This document shows, in pieces, positions 2,137-19,174 of a stretch of 32,000 nt of DNA (its first letter is position 1; each line of letters begins with the position of its first letter). Origin of the DNA: Geotalea uraniireducens Rf4. GTDB lineage: Bacteria; Desulfobacterota; Desulfuromonadia; Geobacterales; Geobacteraceae. Made by a program: the position numbers and the translations under genes. The notes under the pieces were generated by a model. The model saw nothing but the letters and a program-made list of their open reading frames with translations. It did not search any database and had not been told where the DNA came from. The stretch lies in NCBI RefSeq assembly GCF_000016745.1, contig NC_009483.1, forward strand, positions 5,040,001-5,072,000, in the 5' to 3' direction.

Positions 2137-2793
2137 TTACACTGCAATGGCCTTTAGCTGCGGATCGATACTCAATTGGGGGCCGGTCACCCGTTGCACC
2201 TCTTCCACCGTATAGCCGGGTGCGATTTCCCTCAGCAGCAGACCGGCCTTGGTGACATCGATGACTGCCATGTCGGTGATGATGCGGTGCACCACCCCTT
2301 TGCCGGTCAGCGGCAGGGAACAACTGTTGACTATCTTGGGCTGACCGTTCTTACTGCAATGCTCCATGATCACCACGACCCGTTGCGCCCCATTGACCAG
2401 ATCCATGGCGCCCCCCGGCCCTTTCACCATCTTGCCCGGCACCACCCAGTTGGCCAGGTCTCCGCCCACCGACACCTCCATGCCACCCAAGATGGAGAGA
2501 TTTATGTGGCCACCGCGAATCATGGCAAATGATTCGGCACTGGAAAAAACACTGGCGCCCGGAATCATCGTAATCGTCTCTTTGCCGGCATTGATCAGTT
2601 CCGGATCCACTTCTGCTTCCGTCGGATACGGCCCGATCCCGAGCAAGCCGTTTTCCGACTGCAAGACCACATGTTTGTACTTGGGGATAAAGTTGGCAAC
2701 CAGCGTCGGAATGCCGATACCCAAGTTCACATAAAAGCCGTTTTCTATTTCCTGGGCGGCGCGTTGCGCAATCTGCTCTCTGGTTAAAGACAT
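2137..2793 (-). CDS. scoB: 3-oxoacid CoA-transferase subunit B
   Basis: 218 aa. The sequence is close to family consensus ([16 protein letters not shown] catalytic-Glu block, GGAMDLV). It lies 13 nt downstream of the subunit A gene. Confidence 0.93.
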
Positions 2794-2805
2794 TGTTTTT
2801 CCTCC

Positions 2806-3495
2806 TTAAGAGCGAACCGTTCTTCGCTCAATACGTTTTTCATAACCGGAGCATTTGATGACTCGTTGCACGTAAATACCCGGAGTATGGATAAAGTTGG
2901 GGTTAAGTTCTCCCACATCCAACAGTTCCTCTACTTCGGCAATCGTCACCTTGCCGGCGGCGGCCATCATCGGGTTGAAGTTACAGGAGGTCTTGTTGTA
3001 GATGAGATTGCCGGCCCTGTCCCCCGAGCAGGCCTTGACGAAGGCAAAGTCCGCGGTCAGGGCGGTTTCGAGCACGTAATCCTTGCCGTTGAAGCTCCGC
3101 ACCTCCTTCCCCGAGGTCAACTGGGTTCCCACCCCCGCCGGGGTGTAAAAAGCCGGAATACCGGCACCGCCGGCCCTGATCCTCTCCGCCAGGGTACCTT
3201 GCGGGACAAACTCCAGCTCCAGCTCGCCGGCCAGGAATTGCCGTTCAAACTCCCTGTTTTCACCCACGTACGAGGCGACCATCTTCCGAATCTGCCTGGT
3301 GGTCAAAAGGGTGCCCAGGGCATAGTCATCAATGCCGCAGTTATTGGATATAATCGTCAGATCCCTGGTCCCCTTCCTTAGCAATCCCTCGATCAGCTTC
3401 TCAGGGATGCCGACGATGCCAAAGCCGCCAGCCATGATGGTTGCCCCATCCTGGATATCATTAATGGCTTCTTCAATTGAACTCTGGACTTTCAT
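2806..3495 (-). CDS. scoA: 3-oxoacid CoA-transferase subunit A
   Basis: 229 aa. Motifs are DGATIMAGGFG, VSNN-like ISNNCG and GTLAERIRAGGAGIPAFYTP. An AGGAGA RBS lies upstream of the ATG at 3493-3495. Confidence 0.93.
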   Translation of the reverse strand: MKVQSSIEEAINDIQDGATIMAGGFGIVGIPEKLIEGLLRKGTRDLTIISNNCGIDDYALGTLLTTRQIRKMVASYVGENREFERQFLAGELELEFVPQGTLAERIRAGGAGIPAFYTPAGVGTQLTSGKEVRSFNGKDYVLETALTADFAFVKACSGDRAGNLIYNKTSCNFNPMMAAAGKVTIAEVEELLDVGELNPNFIHTPGIYVQRVIKCSGYEKRIERRTVRS

Positions 3496-3524: not shown

Positions 3525-4784
3525 TTACGTTATTGGGACTGCTCTGTTCGAGCGCAGCCGTATTCCCTGCACTTCCCAGCCGTCCAGCTTGAAGGCGGAC
3601 GAGCCGACTCTGCTTACGTTGTGGGCCAGCCAGCACCTGGTGGGGAATGGACAGCCGGCAATGGTCGGTCGACCGCCAGGGGCACTGTTTTGCACGGCAG
3701 AGAACCCACAGCGGATGGCTTCGACCTCCTCACGGTTCAGGTCGCGGACGATAAAGACCAGCCGGCCGTGATGATCCGCAAATGGGCTCTGTGCCGGCCA
3801 TGTGCAGAGGCTGACCGGCGGATAGGCCACATCCTGGACGCAGTGGATTACCCGCGGCAGGGGATCGCCCATGATATTCATCAGCCCCTTGACCCGCAGG
3901 ATTTTGGGGCCGTGGGTTTGCAGGATCCGTCCCATTGCCACGGCGAAGCTGTACCAGGCCACGGGATCGGGGAAGCTGATGACAAAACTGCTGACCGAGT
4001 CGCCATGATGCCCGTGGGAATGGTCGGCTGCGTGGTCTGCAGCTGTACCGGCCCCGGGCGGCTTCTGGGCGCGCATCTGCTCGGCACCGAGCCATGCCGC
4101 CACATTGGTCGACCGGCCCCCGGTGGAGTAAATGCCACAGCCGAACAGCGCGTCCGGACTGATTCGGCCCCGGCACACATCGATCCGGGGCGCACCGGGA
4201 TTGAGTGCATCCAGCCGCCCGTCCAGCGCGGCGCGACCGGTGGTATTAGCCAGATCGCATTTGGTGATCAGCAGCCGGTCGGCCATGGCCACCTGGCGGA
4301 CCGCCTCCCGGTGCTGGTCCAGTTGCTGTAGGGCGTGGGTGGCGTCGACCACGGTGATGACACCGTCACACTGGTAGCGGGCCGCAACGAACCATTCCTG
4401 GGTGAGCGTGGAAATCACCGGGAGGGGATCGGCAAGACCGGTGGTTTCGATGACCACCCGCGACACCTGCGGAATCTCACGCATTGAGCTGCGCTGGGCC
4501 AGATTCCGCAAGGCCTTGACCAGATCCCCCTGCACGCTGCAGCAGATGCAGCCGGAGTCGAGGATCATCATCGTCTCGTCGACCCTGTCGACCAGGTGGT
4601 GATCTATACCGACCTCGCCGAATTCGTTGATCAGGACCGCTGCCCCGGCCATCTCGGGATGCTGCAGCAGATTGTTGAGCAGGGTGGTTTTCCCCGCACC
4701 CAGAAAGCCGGTGAGCAGGGTCACGGGAATCCGCCTGTCGGTTTGCGCCATCAGGTCATGGTACGGCTGCGTTTCGTTGTTCAT
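3525..4784 (-). CDS. COG0523 (CobW/ZigA/YeiR-type) G3E metallochaperone GTPase
   Basis: 419 aa. It has the Walker A GFLGAGKTTLLN, the CxCC metal motif (GCICCS), a His-rich linker DHAADHSHGHHGD, and a CobW_C-like C-terminal domain (ILRVKGL...HHGRLVFI). Confidence 0.9.
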   Translation of the reverse strand: MNNETQPYHDLMAQTDRRIPVTLLTGFLGAGKTTLLNNLLQHPEMAGAAVLINEFGEVGIDHHLVDRVDETMMILDSGCICCSVQGDLVKALRNLAQRSSMREIPQVSRVVIETTGLADPLPVISTLTQEWFVAARYQCDGVITVVDATHALQQLDQHREAVRQVAMADRLLITKCDLANTTGRAALDGRLDALNPGAPRIDVCRGRISPDALFGCGIYSTGGRSTNVAAWLGAEQMRAQKPPGAGTAADHAADHSHGHHGDSVSSFVISFPDPVAWYSFAVAMGRILQTHGPKILRVKGLMNIMGDPLPRVIHCVQDVAYPPVSLCTWPAQSPFADHHGRLVFIVRDLNREEVEAIRCGFSAVQNSAPGGRPTIAGCPFPTRCWLAHNVSRVGSSAFKLDGWEVQGIRLRSNRAVPIT

Positions 4785-4814
4785 GGTGTTTCCTTTAATC
4801 CAGAGAAAGCGGTT

Positions 4815-4927
4815 TCACGCAACGACGCGACGACGCAACGTTTAAAACCATGATCCAAAGATTTGTTTAAAAGCCTTTCGTCGCTTAAAAGCGCCTACTT
4901 TTGGTGCGGCGTTGCGTCATTGCGTGA
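4815..4927. repeat. Imperfect inverted repeat (REP-like) in the intergenic spacer
   Basis: tcacgcaacgacgc[gacgac]gcaacg at 4815-4840 pairs with cgttgcgtcattgcgtga at 4910-4927, whose reverse complement is tcacgcaatgacgcaacg. A duplicated ttaaaagc lies between the arms. Confidence 0.5.
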
Positions 4928-4994
4928 GGAGCCGCGTTTTTTGTCTCTTACGACTTGAGTCTTCATAAAAAGTGAGCAAACCTGAACTGCAATC

Positions 4995-5099
4995 GAACGC
5001 GGATGACGGGGATTGAGCGGATTTACGCAGATCTTAAAACCTTTTTTCTGCCTTGGTTGATCCGTGTAAATCCGCTTAAATCAGATTTGATCCGCGTTC
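4995..5099. repeat. Imperfect ~40-nt-arm palindrome (REP-like element)
   Basis: The left arm is gaacgcggatgacggggattgagcggatttacgcagatc (4995-5033). The reverse complement of 5059-5099 is gaacgcggatcaaatctgatttaagcggatttacacggatc. The arms share the gaacgcggat and agcggatttac blocks and the gatc terminus, with a ~25-nt loop. Confidence 0.55.
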
Positions 5100-5163
5100 T
5101 CTTGCCTTTGATTTCCCATGGTTCCGGCTTGTCCGGGTTGGGTTTAATCGCCTCAATTACCCG

Positions 5164-6039
5164 TCAAGCCCTGTCTGCCTTCAATCTGGCAAGACTGTCC
5201 AGTACCTGCTCCGGCAGGGCATCCCGCGGAATGTCGACGAAGTAGAACTGTGTGGGGGTTAATGGGGGCAACGGCTCTCCCCCCCAGACCATGCCGGACA
5301 CATCAAGGCCCTGGGCCCTGCCGGCAGCCGGGAAGTCGCCGGCGCCGATGAACACATCGATCTCCGCGAGCGCCGGGCTGTCGACAACTTTCCCCTCCCC
5401 CATGCGCAGGGCCAGCGGCCACCGGTAATGCCTGGCCAGGTTGATCAGGGGCCGATACAGCTCCGGATCAACACCCCCCGGTTGCACCCCGGCCAGCGAC
5501 TCCTCCAGCAGCAGGCCACCAACGGCCGCACCGGATACCGAACGGGCAAGATCGGCCACATACATGGCGGAGTCCTCGATACTGTCTCCGTCCAGCTCCA
5601 CCTCCCCGCGTCCCGCCGCCCGGCTGGCCTTTTGCAACCAGGAGCCGGGTGACGGCATGGACAGGACCAGCGGCAGCTGACCGCGGAGTTGCGCCAATAC
5701 GGCTTCGATGATTTCAGCCAGGAGCTCCCGCGGTTGCGACTGTTCCAGCAGCTTGCGCAGCGGATAGGACAGCTTGCGCTTTCCTGCCAACTCCGCTTTG
5801 ACGGCTGGATTACGCTGCAACCATGCGTCAAAGAGCTCGCCGACCTCAATCACCGCCACATCCGGCTTCAGCAACCCTTGGGCCTGGGAGAAATAAGCGA
5901 GGTATCTGCTCGCGCTCTCCCAGGGATCGCCAGACTCCCCCACGAGCAGTCGTTTCGTATAAGAGAAGGATTTAAGCCACGTCCTGATGTTGACGCTGGC
6001 ACCATCTACGGGCATGAGATCGGCGAGATTCTGGCTCAT
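5164..6039 (-). CDS. Hypothetical 291-aa protein with no family recognised; candidate accessory or fifth subunit of the ketone carboxylase
   Basis: A long ORF in the same orientation as the cluster. Its ATG (6037-6039) overlaps the TGA of the alpha-subunit gene (6036-6038) as ATGA. Codon composition matches its neighbours. I see no signal peptide, TM segment or metal/nucleotide motif. Confidence 0.75.
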   Translation of the reverse strand: MSQNLADLMPVDGASVNIRTWLKSFSYTKRLLVGESGDPWESASRYLAYFSQAQGLLKPDVAVIEVGELFDAWLQRNPAVKAELAGKRKLSYPLRKLLEQSQPRELLAEIIEAVLAQLRGQLPLVLSMPSPGSWLQKASRAAGRGEVELDGDSIEDSAMYVADLARSVSGAAVGGLLLEESLAGVQPGGVDPELYRPLINLARHYRWPLALRMGEGKVVDSPALAEIDVFIGAGDFPAAGRAQGLDVSGMVWGGEPLPPLTPTQFYFVDIPRDALPEQVLDSLARLKADRA

Positions 6040-8312
6040 TTCTTTTCGTCCCCCATCGCACCCAACTCGACAAGACGGGCTTCCAGTTCATCAATCCGGA
6101 CATCCTTGGGATGGCGCATATAGTTGGGCTTGGGCTTGTTGGCGTCGCGGGTGATGTCCGGGCTACCGGCATACAGGGTGCCGACATTATCACCCCAGCA
6201 GCCAAAGTACTGCAGATGTGCCGGGGGCTTTGGCGTGTTCCAACTCTTGACGAACTCGGCGAACGGAACCCCACGGGCAACACGATCCTGGCGCTCTTTA
6301 TCACGAAGTGCCCTGGTTGCCTCGTGATTGATCGCCAGGGTAAGCGGATCGAACTTCACCTTGTAGAGACTTTCTGCTACCCCCTCGGAAATCAGCCCTT
6401 CTTCGATATCCTTGATCACCGCCCGGGGGTCGCGCTCCAACAGATCACCATAGCCGGCACCGGCACCTTGGGAAATCATGAACATCTCACCGCGCTTGGA
6501 GATCTCGAACCCCATCCCCATGTGGTGGGTGGTGTAGCTGGCGCCTTCGAACGGTTGCTCGTTCATGATTTCGGCAATGGAATGCTTGAACTTATCCGGT
6601 TCGTTCAGGAGCACGTCATAGACGTCCACCCCCTTCACCTTGCACAGGGGATAGGCGCCGCAGGAGTACCCGCCGAAGAGCCCCTGCATCGGCGGAATCT
6701 TGGCCCCCTGGCAAACGGTCATGAAGCCCCACTGTTCGCTGTCCTTGGTGGCGACCATCATGGTGTATCCCTGGCCGCCGCGGTACTTGCCGGGAGCGAT
6801 TGCATCCTTGGTCATCTTCTTGGAAACCAACTGAAGGAAAGGGACCTCCTCCTCGTTCAGTTCCTGTTCACCGATGTCCGCCATGGTGGCGAAGATCGGC
6901 GCCAGAGCTGGTTCGCCATCACAGTCGGAGCGGGCGCCATGCCCCATGCCGTTCAGGTCGGCACAGAGGTTGCCCAGGGTTTCGCCGTGCTGGCTCACAC
7001 CACCCCAGATGAAGGTGTTGATCATATTGAAAGTCGGCGCATGAACCTTGGTGTACTTCTCCGGGCAGCTGTAGAGGAACTTGGCCACGGCGTGCTGGGC
7101 GGCGGTAAATCCGGTGAAGATCGACATCAGGCTCTGGGAGTTTGGTGCGTCGTAGGAGCAGTCGACAATGGAATGGGGATCGGTGATCACCTCGATGGGG
7201 GCGAACGCCGCCTGCCCCCGCGGCAGGTCCGGCCAGACGTAGCAGAGGAACATCTGGGCGATCATCCCCTTTAAGCCCGCCAGAACCGTATTGGTGGCGC
7301 GGTTGGTGAATTCCGGACTCGATCCGCGGAAGTCGAATATGAGCCGGTCGCCGGTCTTGGTCAGCTTGCAGTTGATCTTCACCACGCAGTTCTCACGCAG
7401 GGTCGAATCCTGGATAATGTAGGTACGCGAAGTCATGTCCGGCCATTCACGGATGCGGCGGATTACCTCGGCGCGCACGTTCTCCATGGTCAGACGGAGC
7501 GTGGCAATAAGGGCCTGTGGCCCGTCGGTCCGCAGGGTCTCCTCGACCCGCTGCTTGATCCGCAGGCAGGCGAAGAGCTTGACCTTCATGTCCTCGTACT
7601 GGAGCTTGGGCTCGCGCACCGAGTTCTGCAGGAAGGTCAGGACATCGCGCTTGATCTCGTAGTTCTCCACGACCCGGAACGGACTCATCTTCAGCCCCTC
7701 GTCGAAGGAGGTCTCGGCCATGGAGGGCATGCCGCCCGGCTCGATGGCGCCGTTCTCCCCTTCGTGCACCGTGGAGGCAACCCAGCAGACCAGCTTTCCC
7801 TCCCAAAATATGGGGAGGATCATACTCTGATCGGTATTATGGACATTGCCATAACGGGAGTCGTTATGTATGAAGCCGTCACCTTCGCGCACCCCCACCG
7901 TCGGGTCATTCATCCAGTTCTTGATGATAAATTTGATCGGGTGGTGAACCAGCGTCGAGAAAATCAGCACGCCTCCCGCACTAGCGATGGCCAAGTCTCC
8001 CGATGCGGTGTAGACGCCGGTGATGACGTCGCCCCACTTGGCACCCGGCGCTGCCCCCATCGCTTCCACCATTTCGAAGCCTTCATCGCAGCCGGCCTGG
8101 ACACGGTCACGAATCTTGGCGGTAGTATGCACGTCATTGTCTTGCCTGATGGCTTCCTCTTCATCCTCACTGCGCGGCATGAGGTCGTGCCGACGCATGA
8201 TCTCCGGATCCGGGCCAAGGAATAGTGTCGTATCACTAAGGAATTTCTTGATCAGTGCGATTTCCTCGGCACTGGGCGTCTTCGCCGCACTTGGCATAAT
8301 AGTTTCGCTCAT
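6036..8312 (-). CDS. acxB: Acetone-carboxylase-type alpha subunit (hydantoinase B/oxoprolinase family)
   Basis: 758 aa, which is acetone-carboxylase alpha size and far longer than a plain hydantoinase B. It contains the block DSRYGNVHNTDQSMILPIFWEGKLVCWVASTVHEGENGAIEPGGM and a KYRGGQG motif. Hydantoinase-A and gamma genes are adjacent. Confidence 0.88.
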   Translation of the reverse strand: MSETIMPSAAKTPSAEEIALIKKFLSDTTLFLGPDPEIMRRHDLMPRSEDEEEAIRQDNDVHTTAKIRDRVQAGCDEGFEMVEAMGAAPGAKWGDVITGVYTASGDLAIASAGGVLIFSTLVHHPIKFIIKNWMNDPTVGVREGDGFIHNDSRYGNVHNTDQSMILPIFWEGKLVCWVASTVHEGENGAIEPGGMPSMAETSFDEGLKMSPFRVVENYEIKRDVLTFLQNSVREPKLQYEDMKVKLFACLRIKQRVEETLRTDGPQALIATLRLTMENVRAEVIRRIREWPDMTSRTYIIQDSTLRENCVVKINCKLTKTGDRLIFDFRGSSPEFTNRATNTVLAGLKGMIAQMFLCYVWPDLPRGQAAFAPIEVITDPHSIVDCSYDAPNSQSLMSIFTGFTAAQHAVAKFLYSCPEKYTKVHAPTFNMINTFIWGGVSQHGETLGNLCADLNGMGHGARSDCDGEPALAPIFATMADIGEQELNEEEVPFLQLVSKKMTKDAIAPGKYRGGQGYTMMVATKDSEQWGFMTVCQGAKIPPMQGLFGGYSCGAYPLCKVKGVDVYDVLLNEPDKFKHSIAEIMNEQPFEGASYTTHHMGMGFEISKRGEMFMISQGAGAGYGDLLERDPRAVIKDIEEGLISEGVAESLYKVKFDPLTLAINHEATRALRDKERQDRVARGVPFAEFVKSWNTPKPPAHLQYFGCWGDNVGTLYAGSPDITRDANKPKPNYMRHPKDVRIDELEARLVELGAMGDEKK

Positions 8313-8359: not shown

Positions 8360-10495
8360 TCAGGCCCGCAGGAACCAGGAGGCACCCTGCTTGGCGGAAA
8401 CAAAGTTCCAGCCCGGATTCACCAGATAGGTGGTCACCTCGGAGGCGATCACCGCCGGCCCGGCAACCTGGACACCCGGTTCAATCGCAGCCCGATCCCA
8501 GACGGGGGTATCAAGCGGACCATCGTGACCGACGAAGTAGCATTTGCGGGTACTCTTGGGTGCGGGTGGCGCCTTGCGCCTGGCCGGTGCAGCGGGTTTT
8601 ATATCTTCGAACTGGACCGTTTCATGGCGCACGTAAGCCGCCACCCGGATGGTATTGATCCGGATCCCCGCCTCGGGGGCCTGGCTCCCTTCACCGAAAC
8701 GTTTGCCGTAGTCCAGTGAGAACTGGGAAATCATCGCCATGACGTCGGCGGGGCCGTGCAACTCGTGCACCGGGATGACCGCGGTCGTCTGCACCAGCTG
8801 GTTGCCATAGCGCATGTCCAGTTCAAGGCTGTGAAGGATCTGCTCCCGCGGAATCCCCTGGCGGATCAGATCCTGGGTCCCGGCCTCCTTCAGCTCCTCG
8901 ACGATGCCGTTGAAGCGATCATAGTCATCGTAGATGTGGCGGCTGTTGGAGTCGTACAGCACCATGTAGAGGGACCGCTCATGGATGTGCAGCTGATGCA
9001 TGTTGCCGGCGCCGACGGCCGAGAATACCGAGCTGAAGGGGGGTGCCAGGATCTTGTTAATCCCCAGGTTCTGGGCGATGCCGCAGCAGTGCAGCGGGCC
9101 GTTGCCGCCGTAGGCGAGCATGGTGAAGTCCTTCGGGTCGTACCCCCTTGCCCGCATTTCGGTGAACAGGCCGTTGGCCATATTGTCGTCAACCTTCTGG
9201 CGAATCAGCATGGCCGCATCGATGGTCGAGCAATCCAGGTCGTCGCAGAGCGCGTCTTCAATGGCGGCGGCGGCCCGACGGGGATTCAGGGAGATCGAAC
9301 CACCCGCGTAGTTCTTGGGATCCAGATAGCCGAGCACCAGGTCCGCATCGGTCACCGTCGGCCGCATGCCACCCCGGTCGTAACAGGCCGGACCGGGATC
9401 TGAACCGGCACTCTCGGGGCCGCACTTGACCGTCTCGTACATCCGGTCGTAGGAGGCGATCGAGCCGCCACCTGCACCCAGCGTCACCAGGTGCACCATC
9501 GGCACGGAAACCAGCCAGCGATCGACAACCGGGTTGAAGTCATAGTGTTTGATGCCCCCCTCGACGACGATGCCGATGTCGTAACTGGTACCACCCATGT
9601 CGGTTGCCACCACATTCCCCAGTGCCGCCTGCATGGCCAGATGTTCGGAGGCGGCAATACCGGATACCGGGCCGGAGTGGATGGTCTGCAGGGCATCGGT
9701 GGAGTTCAGCTGCGCCATGCCGCCCGAGTTGTGGATTACCAGCATCGGCTTTTCATAGCGGTGGGCACGCAGGTTCTGCTCCAGGGCCGAGAGGGCGTGA
9801 TACATGGTCGAGTGGAGATAACCGTCGACAATGGCCGAGGTCGCACGCACATACTCCCCCTTCCGTCCCGCCACCTGGTGGGAGAGGATGACCGGTATGG
9901 CACCCAGCAGATGGGACGGATATTCCTCCAGCAGGATCTCCTCGATCCGCTCTTCATGCATGGGATTGACCACGCTGTTGACCAGGGCCACGACGATGAT
10001 CTCGGCCCCCTTGTCCACCAGGGAACGGATCTGGACGCGAACATCGTCTTCGTCCAGTCGCATCACCAGCCTCCCCTCGAAATCAAGACGCTCGCGCACG
10101 CCACGAATCATGTGGGGCAGGACCAGGGGGGCAGGCCGGGATGCATTGGGGAGATCCTGCTTGCCCAGGTCATCCAGCCCCTCGCCATAACCACGGGCGC
10201 GGCTAAGCGGGACCGTCGCCTCGAAACCCGCGGTCACAAGCATGCCGATCCGCGGCCCCTTGTGTTCGATCAATGCATTGGTACCCAGAGTTGTGGCATA
10301 CCGCACAGAATCCACTCCGGCCAGAATATCTTCCAACTCCAGTCCAAGGACGTTGTAGGCCTTGCTCAGCGCTTCGTTGAACCCGAGCGCCAGATTGTGG
10401 TGAGTGGTGAGAGCCTTTTCCTCAATGTACTTACCATCCCAAACCACGAAACAATCGGTGAAGGTGCCACCGATATCGACAGACACGCGCCTCAT
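8360..10495 (-). CDS. acxA: Acetone-carboxylase-type beta subunit (hydantoinase A/oxoprolinase family)
   Basis: 711 aa. ASKHA motifs are VDIGGTFTD at the N-terminus and ATDMGGTSYDIG. An AAGGAGG RBS lies upstream of the ATG at 10493-10495. Confidence 0.88.
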   Translation of the reverse strand: MRRVSVDIGGTFTDCFVVWDGKYIEEKALTTHHNLALGFNEALSKAYNVLGLELEDILAGVDSVRYATTLGTNALIEHKGPRIGMLVTAGFEATVPLSRARGYGEGLDDLGKQDLPNASRPAPLVLPHMIRGVRERLDFEGRLVMRLDEDDVRVQIRSLVDKGAEIIVVALVNSVVNPMHEERIEEILLEEYPSHLLGAIPVILSHQVAGRKGEYVRATSAIVDGYLHSTMYHALSALEQNLRAHRYEKPMLVIHNSGGMAQLNSTDALQTIHSGPVSGIAASEHLAMQAALGNVVATDMGGTSYDIGIVVEGGIKHYDFNPVVDRWLVSVPMVHLVTLGAGGGSIASYDRMYETVKCGPESAGSDPGPACYDRGGMRPTVTDADLVLGYLDPKNYAGGSISLNPRRAAAAIEDALCDDLDCSTIDAAMLIRQKVDDNMANGLFTEMRARGYDPKDFTMLAYGGNGPLHCCGIAQNLGINKILAPPFSSVFSAVGAGNMHQLHIHERSLYMVLYDSNSRHIYDDYDRFNGIVEELKEAGTQDLIRQGIPREQILHSLELDMRYGNQLVQTTAVIPVHELHGPADVMAMISQFSLDYGKRFGEGSQAPEAGIRINTIRVAAYVRHETVQFEDIKPAAPARRKAPPAPKSTRKCYFVGHDGPLDTPVWDRAAIEPGVQVAGPAVIASEVTTYLVNPGWNFVSAKQGASWFLRA

Positions 10496-10576: not shown

Positions 10577-10975
10577 TTAATGGCCGTGTCCGGCGCCAAG
10601 GACTACTTCAGGGCCTCTCACCGGCTCAAGGACCTCTTCGCGAGTCGACCATTGGGCCTTCAGCGCCGCCAGATCCACCTCCATGTCGTAGAGGGGGGGA
10701 TGTCCGGGAATGGCGTATTCGGTTTCCACCTGGGTGCCGCACTTGGGGCAGTAATACTCGAGAATGCGTACCCACTCAGGATCCGGACTGAAGGTGAAGC
10801 GGTACTTATCCGGATCGATGATCGGCGGATGAATTTCCCTCGGGTCGCGGTTGTAAACCAGCAGCCCTTCCTTGTAGCTCTTTTTTGCGGAACCCACTTC
10901 ATGGTTACAGACGCGGCATTCCCAGGTCTCTTTGTCCAGGTCGATGCGGAGATATTCGGTCATCAGTACTTTCAT
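10577..10975 (-). CDS. acxC: Acetone/acetophenone-carboxylase gamma subunit (Cys4 zinc protein)
   Basis: 132 aa. It has CRVC ... YYCPKCGTQVETE, two CxxC pairs. The EYYCPxCG block is the hallmark of the acetone carboxylase gamma family. Confidence 0.88.
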   Translation of the reverse strand: MKVLMTEYLRIDLDKETWECRVCNHEVGSAKKSYKEGLLVYNRDPREIHPPIIDPDKYRFTFSPDPEWVRILEYYCPKCGTQVETEYAIPGHPPLYDMEVDLAALKAQWSTREEVLEPVRGPEVVLGAGHGH

Positions 10976-10979
10976 GTTT

Positions 10980-12911
10980 TCAACCTCTCTTGTTCAGTAG
11001 AATGTCGCCCGCGTCGCTGATGACAAAACTCCATCCGTCAAGGACCCGGCAGGTAAAGAAGTCTTCTTCGATAATGGCTGGACCAACGCCGTAGTCGCCT
11101 GTTTTCATCTCGTTAAGGTTGTACACGGGCACTTCAATGCGTCCCTTGCGTTTGGTCAGCAGGGTACGATTACTGTGCAATGACGCCTTGTTGCCCTTTT
11201 TGAAGCTGGCTTGTTTATCTTTTTCAGAGCGCAAAACCTTGACCGCTTTCAACTCGACTTCGACGTGCTCGGCCTTCTTGAACGGAGCCGGTACCGCCGC
11301 ATCCGTCAGGAAGTGGCTGATCTCCCTGCCGTCAACTGTCGCCACGAGGCGAGCGCGCAGTTCATAGCGCCCTTCGGCAAATCCTTCCGCATACATGTCG
11401 CGGGCGGCCTTCGTCTTCAGCGCGGCGATGGTCTCCTTCAGCCTGCTTTCATCGATGCCGTGGACCGTGGCGGCGTAATGCTGGGATATGTCGCACTCGC
11501 CGATACCGTAGGCACTGAAGACCGCGGCCATTTTCGGAACTGCGACAGTATCTATTCCTGCCTTCTCGGCGACGCCGCAGGCATTCAGGGGGCCGGCTCC
11601 GCCGAATGCAAGCAGGATGGTCTGGTCCGAGATGCTGGTGGTACGATGCAGCTCAACGGCAACCTTTTCCTCGTAGGCATACTGCATCTGCTGCAAGGCA
11701 TCCTCGAGATCCAGGCCAAGAGGTTTGGCAATATTCTGCTCGACCGCCGCCGCTGCGCGTTCGGCGTCCAGGGCCAGATCACCGCCAAAATAGGATGTTG
11801 GATCAAGGATGCCGCTCAGAAGACTGGCATCGGTGATGGTCGCTTCCTTGCCGCCGCGACCGAAGCAGGCCGGACCTGGAACGGCGCCGACGCTCTCGGG
11901 TCCGATCACGATGCGCCCTTCATGGGCACGGAAAATCGAGCTGCCGCCGACACCGGCGCTGATGATCTCGCAGAGGGGGAATGAAACGGTAATACCTTCC
12001 ACATTGCCACGCCGCTTCTCCGCCACCGTGTCGTTCAGAAACTGACCGATATCGGTGGTGGTGCCGCCGATGTCGATGGCAACCACATCGGAAAATCCGT
12101 ACAGCTTGGCGAAGGTCTTCATCCCCTCCATGCCGCCGCGCGGGCCGGAGCTGTAAGTTTTGATCGCGATAGATTTGGCCACCCGGGATGAGTCGCCATC
12201 GTTGCGGAAGATCTGAAGGGGATTCTTGGTGCGATAGCTGCGCAACCGGTTCTCGGCGTTATAGAGGAAGTTTTCCATTGCCGGATGGAGGAAGGAGTTG
12301 ATCAACGCCGTCCAGGTACGCCGCGCCAGATGGGTGTCGGCACTCAGATCGCTGCCGTACAGAATCGGCACGGCGCCGAGGAGGTGGCGGGGGTACTTGC
12401 GCAGGGCGACCTTCTTGAAAGCCGCCTCGGACTCGATGAAATCCTTTCCGCCGAAACTGACGACCAGCCTGTTCGCCCCGGCAGCGGTGAGCTCGTTGAT
12501 GGCCTTGACGATCAGGTTGTCACGGTCGTCACGCTGCATCAGATCGTCAGCCAGGATTGCCACCCGGTTCCCCACCAATGCAGCGTACAGTTCGGGATCA
12601 TGTTCGGCCAGACTGACCATGATGTCTTTTGTGGCACCATGAATAATCAGTCCGAGACGTGGCCCCTTCCGCTCACAGATCGCGTTCGTCCCCTGGGTCG
12701 TTGAATAGCGAATGAGATCGACCTCTTCCAGTAGACGAGCAACATTCGGCTCGCCGTAGATGACACCGGAGGCCTTCTGCAGCCCCTCAAAGAAGCACTT
12801 ACTGAGATCATAAGGAGTTGTTAGTACCTTGGTTTTGTTGACCAACCCGTCATTCAGAATGCAGATATCGGTGAGTGTCCCCCCGTTATCGATGTTGATT
12901 TGTAATCCCAT
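10980..12911 (-). CDS. Second hydantoinase-A-family paralogue (alpha-prime-like extra carboxylase subunit)
   Basis: 643 aa. Motifs are NIDNGGTLTD at the N-terminus and AIDIGGTTTDIG. An AGGAGG RBS lies 9 nt before the ATG at 12909-12911. The gene ends 4 nt before the gamma gene. Confidence 0.88.
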   Translation of the reverse strand: MGLQINIDNGGTLTDICILNDGLVNKTKVLTTPYDLSKCFFEGLQKASGVIYGEPNVARLLEEVDLIRYSTTQGTNAICERKGPRLGLIIHGATKDIMVSLAEHDPELYAALVGNRVAILADDLMQRDDRDNLIVKAINELTAAGANRLVVSFGGKDFIESEAAFKKVALRKYPRHLLGAVPILYGSDLSADTHLARRTWTALINSFLHPAMENFLYNAENRLRSYRTKNPLQIFRNDGDSSRVAKSIAIKTYSSGPRGGMEGMKTFAKLYGFSDVVAIDIGGTTTDIGQFLNDTVAEKRRGNVEGITVSFPLCEIISAGVGGSSIFRAHEGRIVIGPESVGAVPGPACFGRGGKEATITDASLLSGILDPTSYFGGDLALDAERAAAAVEQNIAKPLGLDLEDALQQMQYAYEEKVAVELHRTTSISDQTILLAFGGAGPLNACGVAEKAGIDTVAVPKMAAVFSAYGIGECDISQHYAATVHGIDESRLKETIAALKTKAARDMYAEGFAEGRYELRARLVATVDGREISHFLTDAAVPAPFKKAEHVEVELKAVKVLRSEKDKQASFKKGNKASLHSNRTLLTKRKGRIEVPVYNLNEMKTGDYGVGPAIIEEDFFTCRVLDGWSFVISDAGDILLNKRG

Positions 12912-13070: not shown

Positions 13071-13088
13071 TTGCGATCTCCATGCCAA
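13071..13088 (-). promoter_or_regulatory. sigma54 (-24/-12) promoter for the carboxylase operon
   Basis: The reverse complement of 13071-13088 is TTGGCATGGAGATCGCAA. TGGCAT and TCGCA have the canonical GG-to-GC spacing (12 nt, first G to G). It lies about 150 nt upstream of the first carboxylase gene, and a sigma54 activator gene is divergent. Confidence 0.55.
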
Positions 13089-13198
13089 TCAATTTCATAT
13101 GTTACCGGTGAATGCATTCGTGATTAAGTATCTAATTTAGTTGTGTTTATTTTATTGGCATACCGTCGTGCATTTTATTCTATTGATACAACGTCGTT

Positions 13199-13241
13199 TT
13201 GTCTCGGATATGAGACTGAGACAGTCTCATATCCGAGACAA
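13199..13241. promoter_or_regulatory. 20-bp perfect palindrome, candidate upstream activator sequence
   Basis: ttgtctcggatatgagactg - aga - cagtctcatatccgagacaa. The centre is about 130 bp upstream (minus-strand sense) of the -24 element, and an AT-rich tract lies between them. Confidence 0.45.
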
Positions 13242-13540: not shown

Positions 13541-13674
13541 TTTCTATACCCTTGTATTTTTTGGAATCGATGTGCTACACTTAAATGAATAAATATAAAC
13601 ATTGTTTTAGCCGCTACAAAAAAACAGGCTGCGACTCAAAAGATCTAAACTGGAGCTTTAGAAGGAGGCATCCG

Positions 13675-15636
13675 ATGGCTCTTGTGAACCCATACGTCAC
13701 GTATCCTAAAGATCGACGCAACATCCATAAACTCCGGGATAGATTTGAAGTTGGACGGTTCGCCAATGAACAGCTGAATGTCTATGAAAAAAAGCTGATC
13801 ACAGACTGGTCTCGCTGCAAAACAATCGGTGTCGATCCGGGTATGCGTGATGGGATCGTTATTCCCGAAGATGAGTTCAGAATCGCCGTTGCCCATAGCA
13901 GTTTCATAATCGAGAAAGCAGAGCCGATTCTGCAAAAGGTTTCAAATCTGCTGGTGGGTGTCCCTGGCATTCTCATTCTTACCGATAATCAAGGTACCAT
14001 TCTGCACATCGTTGGTGATTCGTCCGTGCGTATGCGGGCAGCCGATGAATCTTCGCTTATTGAAGGATCTCGCTGGCTCGAGTCGTTGGCGGGAACGAAC
14101 GGCATCGGTACGGCTATCGCTCAAAAAGAGGCCGTCCATGTGTTTTCCAACGAACATTTTTGCGAAGGGTGGCACCAGTGGTCATGCGCAGCAACGCCGA
14201 TCCTTGACCCCTTCACGGAGGAGGTTCTCGGCGTCGTCGACTTTACCACCTTTGATAAGGACTACCGGGAAGACGCAGTAGGGCTGACCTATTCCCTTTC
14301 TGGCCATATCAAGGCAGAACTGAGACTCCAGCTGGAATTGGAAAGGATGCAACTGATCCATAGCTACTCGGACCACTCATCCCGGTATCCAGCTGATGGC
14401 ATCGTCGTTCTGGATCGAATGGGCCGTGTCGTCAGAAGTAGTCCGGGGATTGACCCGGACGAATGCGATCTGTTCCAGAGATGCAGGTGCGAAAAAGAAC
14501 AACCAAAAATGGTGCAACAGGTCTATTTGCCTGGTACAGAGCGGGAAATCGGTTCGCTCCTGGTGATCCATCGCAAGAAACCCGTTACCATTTCAGTACC
14601 GATAGAATCGGCACTGATACGTTGTGTTGCCACGTTTGGCGAGTTCGTCACGGCTAGCGAGAATCTCAAACTGATTATGGAACGGATCAGCAAAGTCATC
14701 CCTTCTGATATCAACGTGCTGCTCATCGGCGAGACTGGAACCGGCAAGGAGATTGTCGCCAACTACATTCATGCGCACAGCAAACGTCACGCAGGCCCTT
14801 TTGTAGCGGTCAACTGTGGAGCAATCAGCAAGGAACTCTTTGAAAGCAAGTTTTTCGGCTATGAGCGTGGCGCCTTTACCGGTGCCGACCCTCGGGGTAG
14901 GAAAGGGGTTTTTGAATGCGCCGACGGTGGGACCCTCTTCCTCGATGAGGTCGGAGAGATGCCATTGGAAATCCAGGCAGCTCTCTTGCGGGTACTGGAG
15001 ACGGGACGATTCAACCGCGTCGGCTCAGAAAAAGAAATTGCCACAAACTGCAGAATTGTCGCCGCAACAAACCGCTCCCTGTCCCATGAGATCACGCGGG
15101 GTACCTTCCGGGCTGACCTTTACTACAGGCTTGGTGTTGCCACGTTCGACATACCTCCCCTGAGAGAACGACCTGAAGACATCCCTGTTCTTATCCAACG
15201 CACCATGGTGTCATTATGCCGGAAGCACGACCTGCCCCCATCAAACATTTCCGAAGAGGCCATGGAACTCCTGACCGGATACAGCTGGCCGGGAAATGGG
15301 CGCGAGGTCAGAAATGTCATCGAATCGGCCATGATTTGCGGCGGTTCTTCCATTTCCGTCCAGGATCTGCCCATGAATATCAAATATTCACAGAAGCTGC
15401 CGCAAGAGGCGATCTCTGTGAGTGGTGCGCACCTGACTGCAGCACAGGGCAGGAGTCCCGACTCTACCGGCTACCGGATAAATGCCAATATCTCGCAACG
15501 CGAGGTGCACCTGATCATAACAACCCTGGAAAAGTACAAGGACATAGCCCTCGCCTGTGAGGCGCTCGGCGTTTCCAGAGCGACTTTTTACCGTAAGTGC
15601 AAAGCCCATGGGATTACGCCGAGTGACTATATTTAG
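13675..15636 (+). CDS. sigma54-dependent transcriptional activator, AcoR/AcxR type (GAF-like sensor + AAA+ + Fis HTH)
   Basis: The N-terminal sensor carries GTNGIGTAIAQKEAVHV...EHFCEGWHQWSCAATPILDP. The AAA+ core has GETGTGKE, ERGAFTGA (the sigma54-contact GAFTGA loop) and LFLDE, and there is a C-terminal HTH (GVSRATFYRK). I chose the start at 13675 (AGGAGG 6 nt upstream) over the track start at 13585. Confidence 0.92.
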   Translation: MALVNPYVTYPKDRRNIHKLRDRFEVGRFANEQLNVYEKKLITDWSRCKTIGVDPGMRDGIVIPEDEFRIAVAHSSFIIEKAEPILQKVSNLLVGVPGILILTDNQGTILHIVGDSSVRMRAADESSLIEGSRWLESLAGTNGIGTAIAQKEAVHVFSNEHFCEGWHQWSCAATPILDPFTEEVLGVVDFTTFDKDYREDAVGLTYSLSGHIKAELRLQLELERMQLIHSYSDHSSRYPADGIVVLDRMGRVVRSSPGIDPDECDLFQRCRCEKEQPKMVQQVYLPGTEREIGSLLVIHRKKPVTISVPIESALIRCVATFGEFVTASENLKLIMERISKVIPSDINVLLIGETGTGKEIVANYIHAHSKRHAGPFVAVNCGAISKELFESKFFGYERGAFTGADPRGRKGVFECADGGTLFLDEVGEMPLEIQAALLRVLETGRFNRVGSEKEIATNCRIVAATNRSLSHEITRGTFRADLYYRLGVATFDIPPLRERPEDIPVLIQRTMVSLCRKHDLPPSNISEEAMELLTGYSWPGNGREVRNVIESAMICGGSSISVQDLPMNIKYSQKLPQEAISVSGAHLTAAQGRSPDSTGYRINANISQREVHLIITTLEKYKDIALACEALGVSRATFYRKCKAHGITPSDYI

Positions 15637-15857: not shown

Positions 15858-17411
15858 ATGAAAGATATCCCAAAGAAAAATGCACCTTCCAAGCTCAGTC
15901 TTATTCTAACCATCCTCAAAAGTTCAATAACGCATTTAGGTCTTGTTCTGACCCTGCTCTTTTCCCTTACAATCATATTGATTTTCACCTATTTCACGAC
16001 TTATCAGTCAGCCAAGGAACAGATATTGGATGTAGGCGGTGAAATGTTCACCAAGGTAGTAAAGGACGTAATCGGTTTTATGGAGATGATGGACGCGAGG
16101 GTAAAAGCCGGCGAAATAACGCTTGCGGAGGCGCAAGATCTCGTCCGTACGTATGTTAATGGACCAAAGAAACCGGATGGCAACAGGGATATATCAAAAT
16201 CGAAGATGTCAGTGGACGATTACATGTATGTATGGGCTTCTTCCTATAAGCATGATAGAGGCACGCTAACGATGCATCCGTTCAATGTGGAAGGGGTCAA
16301 CGAGTGGAATTATCAAGTGAAAGGCCGCTATACGATTCGAGAATCCTGGTCAAATATTAATAATACCGGCCGTGTTTTCCGCCAGCTGTGGAAAAACCCG
16401 GGAGAACCCGTTTACACATTTATCGCTTATCAGGAGTATTTCGAGCCTTGGGATTGGATTGTGGGATGTGGCGGAAGAGAAGAGATCATATATGAAAGAA
16501 GATTAGGGGGGTTGAAAGGAAAGTTCTTGATAGTAGGCGCGATCTTTTTGTTAATTTCTACCATCCATGTTTACTCTTTCACACGCGTGGAAATCGCTCG
16601 CAGGGAGAGAGAGGAGGAAGTCAGGAAATTAAACAAAGAGCTTGAGCAGCGAGTGAAGGAACGAACGGCACAGCTGGAAGCCACGAACAAGGAGCTCGAT
16701 GCCTTTGCTTACTCCGTCTCCCACGACCTGCGGGCTCCGTTGCGCGCCATTGACGGATTCAGCGCTGCTCTGCTGGAGGATTACAGGGACAAACTGGATG
16801 ATGAGGGAAGAAAATACCTTCGCTACGTCCAGGAGGGAAGTCACGAGATGAGTGATCTCATCGACGGGCTTTTGAAGCTCTCCCGGTCCACGCGTGGCGG
16901 GATAGCTCCGGAGCGTGTTGACCTTTCCGCAATGGCGGTGATGGTGGCAGAGGAACTACGTAAGGCGGAGCCTGACCGTCGGGTGACCATTCACATCGCG
17001 CCGGGTGTGGAGGCCTTTGCCGATCACCGGCTGCTCTGGGTCGTCATGGAGAACCTCCTTGGCAATGCCTGGAAATACACGAGCCAGCGTGCCGACGGCC
17101 GCATTGAGTTAGGCGTCGCAGAACAGCAAGGCAAGGACGTCTACTTCGTCCGAGACAACGGGGCAGGCTTCGACATGGCCTATGCCGACAAACTCTTCCT
17201 TCCCTTCCAGAGGTTGCATAAAACCAGCGAGTTTCCGGGCATCGGCATCGGCCTGGCGACGGTCGAGCGGATCATCCACCGCCACGACGGGCGTATCTGG
17301 GCGCAGGCGGCTGTGGGAGAAGGTGCCACGTTTTATTTCACTCTGGGATTGGAAAGGAACGATGATGAGAAATCGAACTATTCTCTTGGTGGAGGACAAT
17401 CCCAAGGATGA
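15858..17411 (+). CDS. Sensor histidine kinase with a periplasmic single-Cache domain
   Basis: 517 aa. The layout is TM1 (LGLVLTLLFSLTIILIF), a Cache-like periplasmic region (YMYVWASSY...MHPF...WDWIVGCG), TM2 (FLIVGAIFLLISTIHVY), a coiled coil, HisKA (FAYSVSHDLRAPLRAIDGF) and HATPase (NAWKY, RDNGAGFD, GIGIGLATV). Confidence 0.9.
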   Translation: MKDIPKKNAPSKLSLILTILKSSITHLGLVLTLLFSLTIILIFTYFTTYQSAKEQILDVGGEMFTKVVKDVIGFMEMMDARVKAGEITLAEAQDLVRTYVNGPKKPDGNRDISKSKMSVDDYMYVWASSYKHDRGTLTMHPFNVEGVNEWNYQVKGRYTIRESWSNINNTGRVFRQLWKNPGEPVYTFIAYQEYFEPWDWIVGCGGREEIIYERRLGGLKGKFLIVGAIFLLISTIHVYSFTRVEIARREREEEVRKLNKELEQRVKERTAQLEATNKELDAFAYSVSHDLRAPLRAIDGFSAALLEDYRDKLDDEGRKYLRYVQEGSHEMSDLIDGLLKLSRSTRGGIAPERVDLSAMAVMVAEELRKAEPDRRVTIHIAPGVEAFADHRLLWVVMENLLGNAWKYTSQRADGRIELGVAEQQGKDVYFVRDNGAGFDMAYADKLFLPFQRLHKTSEFPGIGIGLATVERIIHRHDGRIWAQAAVGEGATFYFTLGLERNDDEKSNYSLGGGQSQG

Positions 17412-17517
17412 GCTCCTCACGTTGCGAGCGCTTAACAAGTGCCATCTGGCTGAATTGGGACGTTACTGGCTGATCATCAATGAGCCGCCGCGCAAGGAGG
17501 GGGGAAAGACGCAATGA
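17362..17517 (+). pseudogene. Stub of a CheY-like receiver gene (beta1-alpha1 only)
   Basis: MMRNRTILLVEDNPKDELLTLRALNKCHLAE is a typical receiver N-terminus. The ORF then turns into unrelated sequence and stops after 51 codons, before any phospho-acceptor Asp. It overlaps the kinase 3' end and the next gene's start. Confidence 0.5.
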
Positions 17518-18474
17518 GTGGGCATCTTCGTATACTGATCATCGATGATTCCGAGCGAGATGCCCTGCTGTTGGTCCGTGCCCTGTGCAAGGAAGGGCTT
17601 GAACTGTATTCAGAGCGGGTCGACACCGCAGAAGCCATGGAGAGAGCGCTGATGGCTGGACAGTGGGATGTTGCGATTTCCGATTGCCACATGCCGGACT
17701 TCACTGTCGAAGGGGCACTGGCTATATGGCAAAGAGAGGGAAAGGATCAACCCTTCATCGTGGTTTCAGGAGCCATAGGCGAAGAGGAAGCAGTAGCGCT
17801 TTTAAAAGCGGGAGCCCACGATTTTGTCAAGAAAGACAACCTGGCCCGCCTGGTGCCGGCCATCGAGCGCGAACTGCGGGACGCGGCGGACCGTCATGCC
17901 CGAAGAGAGGCTGAAGAGGCTTTGCGCCAAAGCGAGATGCGCCGCCTCCAGCTTCAGGCGGAATTGAACTGTGCGGCCGAAATGCAAAAAATGCTGCTTC
18001 CCCGGGATCCCCTTACTTTAGCCGGCTTTGAAATCGCCGCGTTTTGTACGCCTGCCCGTCAGGTTGGGGGTGATTTCTACGACTGGTATGAGACGATTCC
18101 GGGGATCGTGACCCTGACCTTTGGTGATGTCATGGGCAAAGGAATGGCAGCTGCCATGCTCATGACAACGGTACGGGCCACTCTGCGTGCCGTAACCCTC
18201 CGAGTTCAACCATCGATAGCAGTTCAACTTGCCGAACAGTCCCTCCGTCACGACCTGAACAGTTCAGAAAGCTTTGTGACTCTTTTTTTGGCACGACTCA
18301 ATGTTGATGCCTCTCTAATGACGTATGTGGACTGCGGCCACGGTTTTGCATTCCTGCGGCGCCGTGATGGAATGGTTGAAGAGCTTCTTCCACGGGGCCT
18401 TCCTTTAGGGGTCTCGTCTGTAGAGAAATATCAAGAGGGGGGATGTGTCTTTGAAGAAGGGGATGCCTTCGTTC
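17514..18474 (+). pseudogene. REC-PP2C (RsbU/SpoIIE-type phosphatase) response regulator, 5' fragment interrupted by an IS
   Basis: The receiver is ILIIDDSERD...AISDCHMPDF...KKD. A coiled coil follows, then the PP2C blocks GGDFYDW and GDVMGKGMAAAMLM. Authentic sequence ends at ...EEGDAFV (GTT 18471-18473); the rest of the track ORF (to 18536) is IS-end sequence. Confidence 0.85.
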
Positions 18475-18502
18475 CCCCCTGTGTCAGAATAGTTGTCGCC
18501 TC
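18475..18502. repeat. IS left inverted repeat (IRL)
   Basis: See the mobile-element entry; the core is tgtcagaatagttgtcgcctc. Confidence 0.8.
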
Positions 18503-18520
18503 AGATGGGTTGTTTAGCCA

Positions 18521-18580
18521 CGGTCTTTCGAGCTGAATTGCAACGAGCGTAGCGAGCTTGCGATTCAGCTCGAAAGACCG
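18521..18580 (+). repeat. 18-bp perfect stem-loop inside the IS left end
   Basis: cggtctttcgagctgaat (18521-18538) pairs with attcagctcgaaagaccg (18563-18580), with a 24-nt loop. It lies between IRL and orfA. Confidence 0.6.
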
Positions 18581-18640: not shown

Positions 18641-19174
18641 ATGACATACACACAAGGATTCAAATCCAGCCTGGTTCGCAAGATGGCCTGCCCTAATGGC
18701 GTCTCGGCCTCAGCTCTATCCCGAGAAGTGGGAATTCCCCAACAATCACTCTCTCGCTGGCTTCGAGACGCAAATGTCGTGAATGAATCTGGTAACTCCC
18801 CAATTTCTGAAGCACCATGGAGAACAATGTCCCCAAAGCGCCCACAAGACAAGTCTGCCGAAGAAAAGCTCAAAATCGTCATCGAAGCCGAGACGGTTGC
18901 CGAAGATCAACTTGGCGCCTTCCTGCGTCGCAATGGAATTCATGAAGCACAGTTACGCGAGTGGCGCGCCATGATGCTTTCGGGGCTGCAAAAACCGTCT
19001 CGGCCTTCCTCAAAAACATCAGAGGAAACTCGCAAAATTCATGCACTGGAAAAAGAATTACTGCGCAAAGATAAAGCATTGGCCGAGGCCGCCGCGATTT
19101 TGATCCTCAAAAAAAAAGTCCAATCGATCTGGGGGGGCGAGGACGAGCCCACGGACAAGAGGAACGGCAGATGA
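18641..19174 (+). CDS. IS3-family transposase OrfA (HTH + leucine-zipper-like)
   Basis: 177 aa. It has an HTH region (ALSREVGIPQQSLSRWL) and a C-terminal heptad region (ALEKELLRKDKALAEAAAILILKKK), as in IS3/IS911 OrfA. Confidence 0.85.
   Translation: MTYTQGFKSSLVRKMACPNGVSASALSREVGIPQQSLSRWLRDANVVNESGNSPISEAPWRTMSPKRPQDKSAEEKLKIVIEAETVAEDQLGAFLRRNGIHEAQLREWRAMMLSGLQKPSRPSSKTSEETRKIHALEKELLRKDKALAEAAAILILKKKVQSIWGGEDEPTDKRNGR
19111..19117 (+). other. Candidate -1 programmed frameshift heptamer A AAA AAA
   Basis: An A9 run at 19109-19117 is read as AAA AAA AAA in the orfA frame. By my translation the orfB (-1) frame is open from 19108 through to the ATG at 19171 (QKKSPIDLGGRGRAHGQEERQM). Confidence 0.5.

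Follow-up and report, generated by a model that had tools for sequence, protein, structure and literature searches.

A probable epsilon-type fifth subunit, remotely related to ApcE, in a ketone carboxylase operon of Geotalea uraniireducens Rf4

Introduction

What does the gene do that directly follows the hydantoinase B-type (HydB-type) carboxylase gene in Geotalea uraniireducens Rf4? The stretch of DNA analysed here (hereafter the window) comprises 32,000 nucleotides (nt) of contig NC_009483.1, from position 5,040,001 to position 5,072,000, and its list of open reading frames (ORFs) contains at this place a 291-amino-acid (aa) ORF with an ATG start on the minus strand (positions 5164–6039 of the window; hereafter the target). 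An initial annotation proposed, from position and size, that the target is equivalent to ApcE, the epsilon subunit of the acetophenone carboxylase (Apc) of Aromatoleum aromaticum EbN1, and it named several ways of checking this, among them a Foldseek search with a predicted structure, a pairwise alignment to ApcE and the position of homologues relative to hydantoinase-B genes. Our results back the equivalence by predicted fold, profile–profile comparison, hidden Markov model (HMM) search and synteny, and suggest that the target is very probably the fifth, epsilon-type subunit of a ketone carboxylase of the Apc class (alpha' gamma alpha beta epsilon) that depends on ATP and needs no biotin.

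In A. aromaticum, the carboxylase cannot work without Apc-epsilon, a protein that the purified core does not include; this core, inactive on its own, contains both kinase sites, and native core that has been purified and holds its Zn becomes active in vitro only when recombinant Apc-epsilon is added (Weidenweber et al. 2017, PMC5214803). The same study already showed that an apc-like operon may carry a fifth gene for a divergent epsilon, found close ApcE orthologues in just two further organisms and noted that some clusters lack the fifth subunit. What is new here is (i) the link between an unannotated protein family and ApcE; (ii) the near-universal presence of epsilon in both types of cluster; and (iii) a small set of residues conserved across the two families.

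An unannotated protein family

The minus-strand bases 6039–6036 read ATGA, i.e. the start codon of the target overlaps the TGA stop codon of the upstream gene by 4 nt; both the coordinates and the minus-strand sequence confirm what the initial annotation had read here. The beta (HydB-type) and epsilon genes, which overlap at 6036–6039 (minus strand) in the window, keep this −4 spacing in 38/38 related metagenomic loci in which epsilon is at least 43% identical to the target (43–80%), and the overlap is therefore not due to chance. A purine-rich GGGGA is located ∼10 nt upstream of the target ATG. The upstream gene had been called the carboxylase alpha subunit, which follows acetone-carboxylase naming; in Apc naming it corresponds to ApcD, the beta subunit of Weidenweber et al. 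(2017).

The target protein has a mass of 31.5 kDa and an isoelectric point of 4.9, contains 14.4% Leu, 11.7% Ala and 8.9% Gly, and has no Cys and only one His, which agrees well with its earlier description as an acidic, Leu/Ala/Gly-rich protein of ∼31 kDa. Its maximum Kyte–Doolittle value over 19 residues is 1.27, so that no transmembrane segment is indicated. A signal peptide or a membrane role is ruled out, as the protein lacks a hydrophobic segment. Searches of Pfam and NCBIfam gave no match for the target at E ≤ 0.1, consistent with the initial annotation, in which neither a domain nor a transmembrane segment had been recognised.

The description of the target as family-less is correct for these curated libraries only and does not hold overall. 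A word-indexed search retrieved 236 homologues, which apart from the target's own match are ∼288 aa long, and none of which has a functional name or a Pfam domain; the 100% identical match is a 'hypothetical protein' of G. uraniireducens. The other homologues originate from Geobacteraceae, Desulfuromonadaceae, Rhodocyclaceae, Ampullimonas and numerous metagenomes. When 1.84 billion cluster representatives were searched with a profile, 473 members were obtained at E ≤ 1e-3 (348 at E ≤ 1e-10), and full-length family members have identities to the target as low as ∼25%. Conservation across the 473 cluster representatives, together with the confident fold described below, rules out a chance ORF. 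Residue numbers hereafter count from Met1, which is absent from alignments A1 and A3 and from the AlphaFold2 model, so that their numbers are one lower.

A predicted fold shared with ApcE

An AlphaFold2 model built from a 44-sequence alignment (predicted local distance difference test 90.7; predicted template-modelling score 0.90) consists of eight alternating strands and helices that form a (beta/alpha)8 barrel. When the model was compared with the PDB by Foldseek, the first three ranks were taken by chains 9fou_B, 9fou_A and 9fou_D of entry 9FOU (E 5.4e-8 to 1.1e-6; template-modelling (TM) scores 0.54–0.61), which is entitled 'Acetophenone carboxylase subunit epsilon ApcE' and was released on 2025-12-24. 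A search of the available literature library found no paper on 9FOU. The ApcE chains are followed by many structures of uroporphyrinogen decarboxylase (URO-D; E ∼1e-4, TMq 0.55–0.61) and then by the MtaA-type methyltransferase 4ay7. The model thus predicts for the target the same URO-D-like (beta/alpha)8 barrel as in the solved ApcE structure, with moderate TM scores.

A remote sequence link to ApcE

The ApcD sequence of A. aromaticum was taken from the PDB alignment and aligned with the HydB protein of the window, and this alignment was used to scan one genome per species. The scan gave 80 loci with ApcD orthologues that are 52–88% identical to the ApcD chain of PDB entry 5L9W. Strain EbN1 was not among the scanned-genome matches (the best locus is 88% identical), and its ApcD and ApcE sequences were taken from PDB alignments, with the orthologous loci used besides. 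By BLAST clustering, the ORFs directly 3' of the apcD orthologues belong to one family in 59 of 70 loci. One of its members matches 9fou_A with a phmmer E-value of 3.9e-87, which identifies the assembled post-apcD family as ApcE.

In 71 of the 80 loci, an HMM of the ApcE family finds a match immediately after apcD. In four further loci the match lies inside an ORF that was extended upstream by the ORF caller, and three loci have no downstream sequence; an epsilon-family gene thus follows apcD in 75/77 informative loci. The other two loci (L038 and L039; downstream of apcD, about 11926) contain ∼10 kb of downstream sequence and no detectable epsilon-family gene. They may be natural Apc-like clusters without epsilon, or their epsilon may be encoded elsewhere.

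We then compared the two families with each other. Aligned by hhalign against the ApcE family, the target family reached a probability of 95.8% (E 7e-9) when its close alignment was used and 97.8% (E 1.3e-12, 250 columns) with the broad one, and a third comparison gave 97.4% (E 1.4e-11); the alignments span 238–250 columns at ∼15% identity. The ApcE-family HMM also recognises the target itself (23.6 bits) and, among 3364 ORFs of target-type loci, all of its 39 matches are ORFs in the epsilon position. In addition, the ApcE profile matches MtaA (4ay7, E 2.8e-15), URO-D (2eja, E 1.3e-5) and, weakly, MetE, which places both epsilon families in the URO-D/MtaA/MetE barrel superfamily. These comparisons support the view that the target is a very divergent homologue of ApcE, detectable only by profiles. 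The outcome that the initial annotation had set against its own proposal, i.e. an unrelated housekeeping family that is not linked to hydantoinase genes, is not what we found.

Conservation of the gene neighbourhood

A metagenome scan with alignment A1 gave 79 loci with an epsilon homologue that is 30–80% identical to the target. Upstream sequence is available for 72 of these metagenomic loci, and in 68 of them the gene immediately preceding epsilon on its strand is of the HydB type, so that the homologues do follow hydantoinase-B genes as the initial annotation had anticipated. The four exceptions comprise one ORF-calling artefact and three loci with an insertion of ∼1.5 kb. The gene order alpha'-gamma-alpha-beta-epsilon is kept wherever the contig extends far enough. 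Loci of the ∼30%-identity group mostly have short spacers between beta and epsilon (up to ∼160 nt). Downstream of epsilon, CoA-transferase A/B and thiolase genes are found in both the close and the ∼30%-identity groups. By contrast, a CobW gene follows epsilon in 25 of the 42 loci whose epsilon has an identity of 43% or more (on the same strand in 24 and on the opposite strand in one) and is absent from the ∼30%-identity group, which nevertheless keeps epsilon.

This position and order are those of ApcE, which is likewise encoded by the fifth gene of an alpha'-gamma-alpha-beta-epsilon operon, directly after the HydB-type gene (PMC5214803), and which has a similar size (32–34 kDa versus 31.5 kDa for the target). 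The start of epsilon differs in detail: it overlaps the upstream stop codon by 4 nt in the target subfamily, whereas the ORFs as called in the ApcD-orthologue loci mostly start a few nt after the apcD stop codon.

The five subunits do not diverge at the same pace. Identities to the alpha'/gamma/alpha/beta/epsilon subunits of the window are 85/93/96/94/80% in locus L081, 63/80/88/87/60% in L095 and 37/56/60/51/32% in L127. Across the loci L081–L159, epsilon evolves most rapidly, followed by alpha', and these are the two Apc-specific subunits. The fast divergence of epsilon agrees with an earlier remark that the fifth subunit is far more divergent than the others (PMC5214803, 2017). Measured against alpha, beta and gamma, epsilon and alpha' have diverged about equally fast, which would fit a co-evolution of epsilon with alpha'.

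Class of the carboxylase core

All four core genes are located directly upstream of the target on the minus strand. They encode (i) the alpha' subunit (10980–12911), an ApcA-like second Hydantoinase_A (HydA) paralogue of 643 aa without the alpha fingerprint, as indicated by Pfam, NCBIfam and a motif scan; (ii) the gamma subunit (10577–10975), an ApcB-like protein of 132 aa (NCBIfam ApcB, E 1.5e-39) with a CxxC...CxxC arrangement (C20, C23, C76 and C79); (iii) the alpha subunit (8360–10495), an ApcC-like HydA protein of 711 aa identified by Pfam and NCBIfam; and (iv) the beta subunit (6036–8312), an ApcD-like protein of 758 aa with a Hydantoinase_B fold (Pfam PF02538, E 1.4e-74; NCBIfam ApcD, 326 bits; PDB 5l9w_A, E 1.4e-84). 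The beta protein is 31% identical to the ApcD chain of 5L9W, i.e. of the A. aromaticum enzyme.

The fingerprint R/KERxDxxG distinguishes alpha from alpha' (Weidenweber et al. 2017, PMC5214803). Among the HydA paralogues of the window it occurs only in the 711-aa protein (RERLDFEG; motif [RK]ER.D..G at residue 134). The window thus has two HydA paralogues with the fingerprint in only one of them, which gives the apcA-B-C-D-(E) architecture of PMC5214803, and a small Cys4 gamma-like protein besides. Acetone carboxylase (Acx; alpha beta gamma), ATP-dependent hydantoinases, oxoprolinases and caprolactamase share homologous HydA and HydB subunits (Acx also gamma) but have neither an alpha' nor an epsilon subunit (PMC5214803); presence of both in the window therefore points to the Apc class.

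However, all four core subunits score far below the cut-offs of the NCBIfam Apc equivalogs (335/1250, 135/250, 569/1500 and 326/1500 bits for ApcA, ApcB, ApcC and ApcD), and the enzyme thus need not act on acetophenone. Judged by its architecture, the enzyme of the window is of the Apc class, while acetophenone as its substrate cannot be assumed. A literature search on Geobacter and acetophenone carboxylase found nothing relevant.

Residues shared by the two epsilon families

Despite ∼15% identity, a few positions are common to the target and ApcE families: (i) E/D109; (ii) a Pro after strand 3 (P131; PSP in one family and GP in the other, i.e. [PG]-P); (iii) R166 (A-D-L-x-R versus L-x-R, within L-x-R-x-[FY/S]); (iv) a strand ending in E179; and (v) N200-[VIL]-A-[RK]-[HF]-[YH]-R. 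The ApcE family also has a conserved C-P motif, whereas the target has no cysteine.

Within a 55-member family alignment of the target, the best-conserved residues are W21, Y27, P123, P131, Y160, D163, R166, N200, H204, Y205, W207, P276 and E277. In the AlphaFold2 model these are mostly located on helices or in helix-to-strand loops and not at the C-termini of strands. Across the wider family, the most conserved residues are mainly aromatic residues, Pro and Leu. By transitive alignments, the position of the catalytic Asp of URO-D is occupied by Pro in ApcE and by Gly in the target.

These features were also compared with the known enzymes of the superfamily. URO-D/HemE (PF01208) shares the (beta/alpha)8 topology with the target, and is linked to the ApcE family by the sequence profile mentioned above. 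However, none of the 55 relatives nor the target matches the Pfam URO-D model, even at E ≤ 10, the target is ∼60 residues shorter, and its gene lies in a carboxylase operon and not in a haem-synthesis context. An identity as URO-D is thus rejected: there is no profile match, the catalytic Asp (FSD motif) is not kept, and only the fold is shared. The methylcobamide:CoM methyltransferases MtaA and MtbA and MetE also have the superfamily fold. MtaA, too, docks onto a partner protein in order to function. These enzymes use a His/Cys/Cys zinc site, which the target cannot form, and no corrinoid protein is encoded nearby. The absence of Cys excludes a Zn-thiolate site, and a Zn methyltransferase role of the MtaA/MetE type is ruled out in a protein with no Cys and one His.

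The lack of Cys, the Gly at the position of the URO-D Asp and the pattern of conservation together favour a structural, docking or gating role over catalysis of the URO-D or MtaA type. The pattern tentatively fits a docking surface better than a substrate pocket, and the target is probably a docking or coupling subunit and not an enzyme of the URO-D or MtaA type.

Other features of the operon and the window

Downstream of the target, also on the minus strand, are genes encoding (i) a CobW/ZigA-type metallochaperone GTPase (3525–4784; Pfam cobW and CobW_C, and NCBIfam); (ii) a 3-oxoacid CoA-transferase with subunits A (2806–3495) and B (2137–2793), both matching Pfam CoA_trans (E 4e-75 and 3e-50; together 2137–3495); and (iii) an SCP2-type thiolase (952–2115; Pfam Thiolase_C_1 and Thiolase_N) with its DUF35/OB-fold partner (726–977; OB_ChsH2_C), which together span 726–2115. 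The CoA-transferase probably activates the beta-keto acid product, and the thiolase with its DUF35/OB-fold partner probably cleaves the resulting beta-ketoacyl-CoA by thiolysis. The apc operon of A. aromaticum, by contrast, consists of apcA–E and a benzoylacetate-CoA ligase gene (PMC5214803). This difference in downstream genes (CobW being present in only part of the target-type loci) suggests a different route from the beta-keto acid onward, and possibly a different substrate.

The CobW GTPase gene may share an operon with epsilon. Its presence inside a ketone-carboxylase operon hints at dedicated metal delivery, e.g. of Zn to the Cys4 gamma subunit or of a metal to beta. The spacer between epsilon and cobW (4785–5163) is 379 nt long and contains two long inverted repeats (4815–4837/4905–4927 and 5013–5033/5059–5079), whereas in close relatives cobW starts ∼14 nt after epsilon (e.g. 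L081). No second copy of this spacer is found within the window, and Rfam gave no match anywhere in the window, spacer included. An inserted element is one possible explanation of the spacer, a regulatory structure another.

A probable control region (13072–13241, minus strand) lies at the other end of the operon. It contains a sigma54-like −24/−12 element (TGGCAT-N5-TCGCA, 13087–13072) ∼160 nt upstream of the apcA-like start and, ∼110 nt further upstream, a perfect 20-nt inverted repeat with a 3-nt spacer (13199–13241). Both are located between the operon and the divergently transcribed gene of a sigma54-dependent activator (13585–15636, plus strand; Pfam Sigma54_activat, E 2.8e-66, and HTH_8). 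From this position, the sigma54-like element is probably a promoter and the inverted repeat probably the activator-binding site. A strict search for the sigma54 consensus (at most one mismatch) missed this region; the candidate has two mismatches and was spotted by reading the sequence.

Further along the window, an IS3-like transposase pair on the plus strand (18641–20196) consists of an HTH_Tnp_1 ORF followed by an rve integrase-core ORF with a 4-nt overlap. It adjoins genes for a Cache-domain histidine kinase (15858–17411) and a response-regulator/SpoIIE phosphatase (17514–18536).

Discussion

According to the proposal of Weidenweber et al. (2017, PMC5214803), Apc-epsilon attaches to the complex in its closed state, sets off the two kinase reactions and contributes to bridging the gap of ∼20 Å between the sites of alpha and alpha'. 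By analogy, Geotalea epsilon may have the same role. It would enable the coupling of the two kinase reactions (i.e. ketone to enol phosphate and bicarbonate to carboxyphosphate) to the formation of the C–C bond, and the CoA-transferase and thiolase encoded alongside could then process the beta-keto acid product. The conserved ATGA overlap suggests that translation of epsilon is coupled to that of beta, which would provide roughly equimolar amounts of both.

Several points weigh against this assignment. First, the pairwise alignment to ApcE, one of the proposed checks, failed: BLASTP gave no significant alignment between the target and A. aromaticum ApcE (sequence from 9FOU; E 4.6), although the best local alignment falls in the same region as the hhalign alignment. 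Second, PDB sequence searches gave no match with either the single target sequence or the close-family profile. Third, the structural similarity between the target and ApcE (TM ∼0.6, root-mean-square deviation 5.5 Å) is no better than that between the target and URO-D, and ApcE is ahead on Foldseek E-value only. Fourth, with a beta subunit that is only ∼31% identical to that of Apc and with the low scores of the core as a whole, the enzyme may differ from Apc in its substrate and possibly in its use of epsilon. Fifth, the preference for docking over catalysis draws on conservation patterns and transitive alignments.

A further question is whether epsilon itself could make the C–C bond. URO-D-like epsilon barrels might be universal and obligatory in all alpha'-containing (Apc-class) ketone carboxylases, in families that pairwise searches leave unlinked. 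As these barrels descend from the fold of a cofactor-less decarboxylase, they might form the C–C bond-forming chamber for CO2 or carboxyphosphate and enol phosphate, and E109, P131, R166, E179 and N200-x-A-[RK] would then mark a catalytic or channel surface. We regard this general proposal as speculative and rather unlikely. More narrowly, epsilon of the window could be the actual carboxylation catalyst, i.e. a URO-D-derived barrel running in reverse, to which enol phosphate and CO2 or carboxyphosphate would be passed from the two kinase sites so that the bond is made in the barrel pocket. The clear link of the ApcE profile to MtaA and URO-D, with which Foldseek agrees, is in line with this idea, as are the need for ApcE and the inactivity of the core despite its two kinase sites (PMC5214803), and the charged residues that the close family has at or next to strand ends (K23, E65, E179/E180, R212 and D246). 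These charges, however, are not well kept: D246 is less than 70% conserved in the 55-member family (which extends down to 24% identity), position 23 is Lys in the target but Asp in the family consensus, and E65 and R212 are absent from the list of residues conserved at ≥70%, neither having been checked separately. The best-conserved polar residues (D163, R166, N200, H204 and E277) are instead located on helices and not at strand C-termini, and the catalytic Asp of URO-D aligns, transitively, with Pro or Gly. Such a catalytic role of the target is quite unlikely.

The neighbouring CobW/ZigA-like gene, present after epsilon in the window and in more than half of the closer loci (25/42), raises a different possibility, namely that epsilon is a maturation or metal-insertion adaptor that works with this GTPase and loads Zn or another metal into gamma or beta. 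The Cys4 site of the gamma-like subunit speaks for this, as does the absence of ApcE from the purified core (PMC5214803). Yet the ∼30%-identity group retains epsilon without CobW, no CobW is mentioned in the description of the A. aromaticum apc operon (PMC5214803), and a protein that offers one His and no Cys is ill suited to carrying a metal. Moreover, the purified core that already holds its metal still needs added epsilon in vitro (PMC5214803), which points to a role in turnover. We consider an adaptor function very unlikely. As for a free-standing pathway enzyme of the URO-D/MtaA superfamily (a decarboxylase, isomerase or methyltransferase) that merely shares the operon, the barrel fold and the co-encoded CoA-transferase and thiolase would allow it, but it is highly improbable, given that no family member matches Pfam URO-D or any other enzyme family, that Zn ligands are lacking, that adjacency to beta is near-universal and the 4-nt overlap conserved while the downstream pathway genes vary, and that the homologue ApcE is a documented carboxylase component (PMC5214803).

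In brief, the reading that best accommodates these observations is that of an epsilon-type accessory subunit (5164–6039, minus strand), supported by the ORF, the AlphaFold2 model, Foldseek, hhalign and the HMM search as a 291-aa, 31.5-kDa protein with a predicted URO-D-like (beta/alpha)8 barrel and remote homology to ApcE.

Implications

For the mechanism of biotin-independent, ATP-dependent ketone carboxylases, the key question is what Apc-epsilon does. A second, unannotated family with 473 cluster representatives is now tied to ApcE, and the residues that are conserved across ∼15% identity are concrete targets for mutagenesis. A Pfam or NCBIfam model of this family is possible, with which several hundred 'hypothetical proteins' could be re-annotated. 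The Geotalea system also provides a second, phylogenetically distant setting in which the function of epsilon can be tested.

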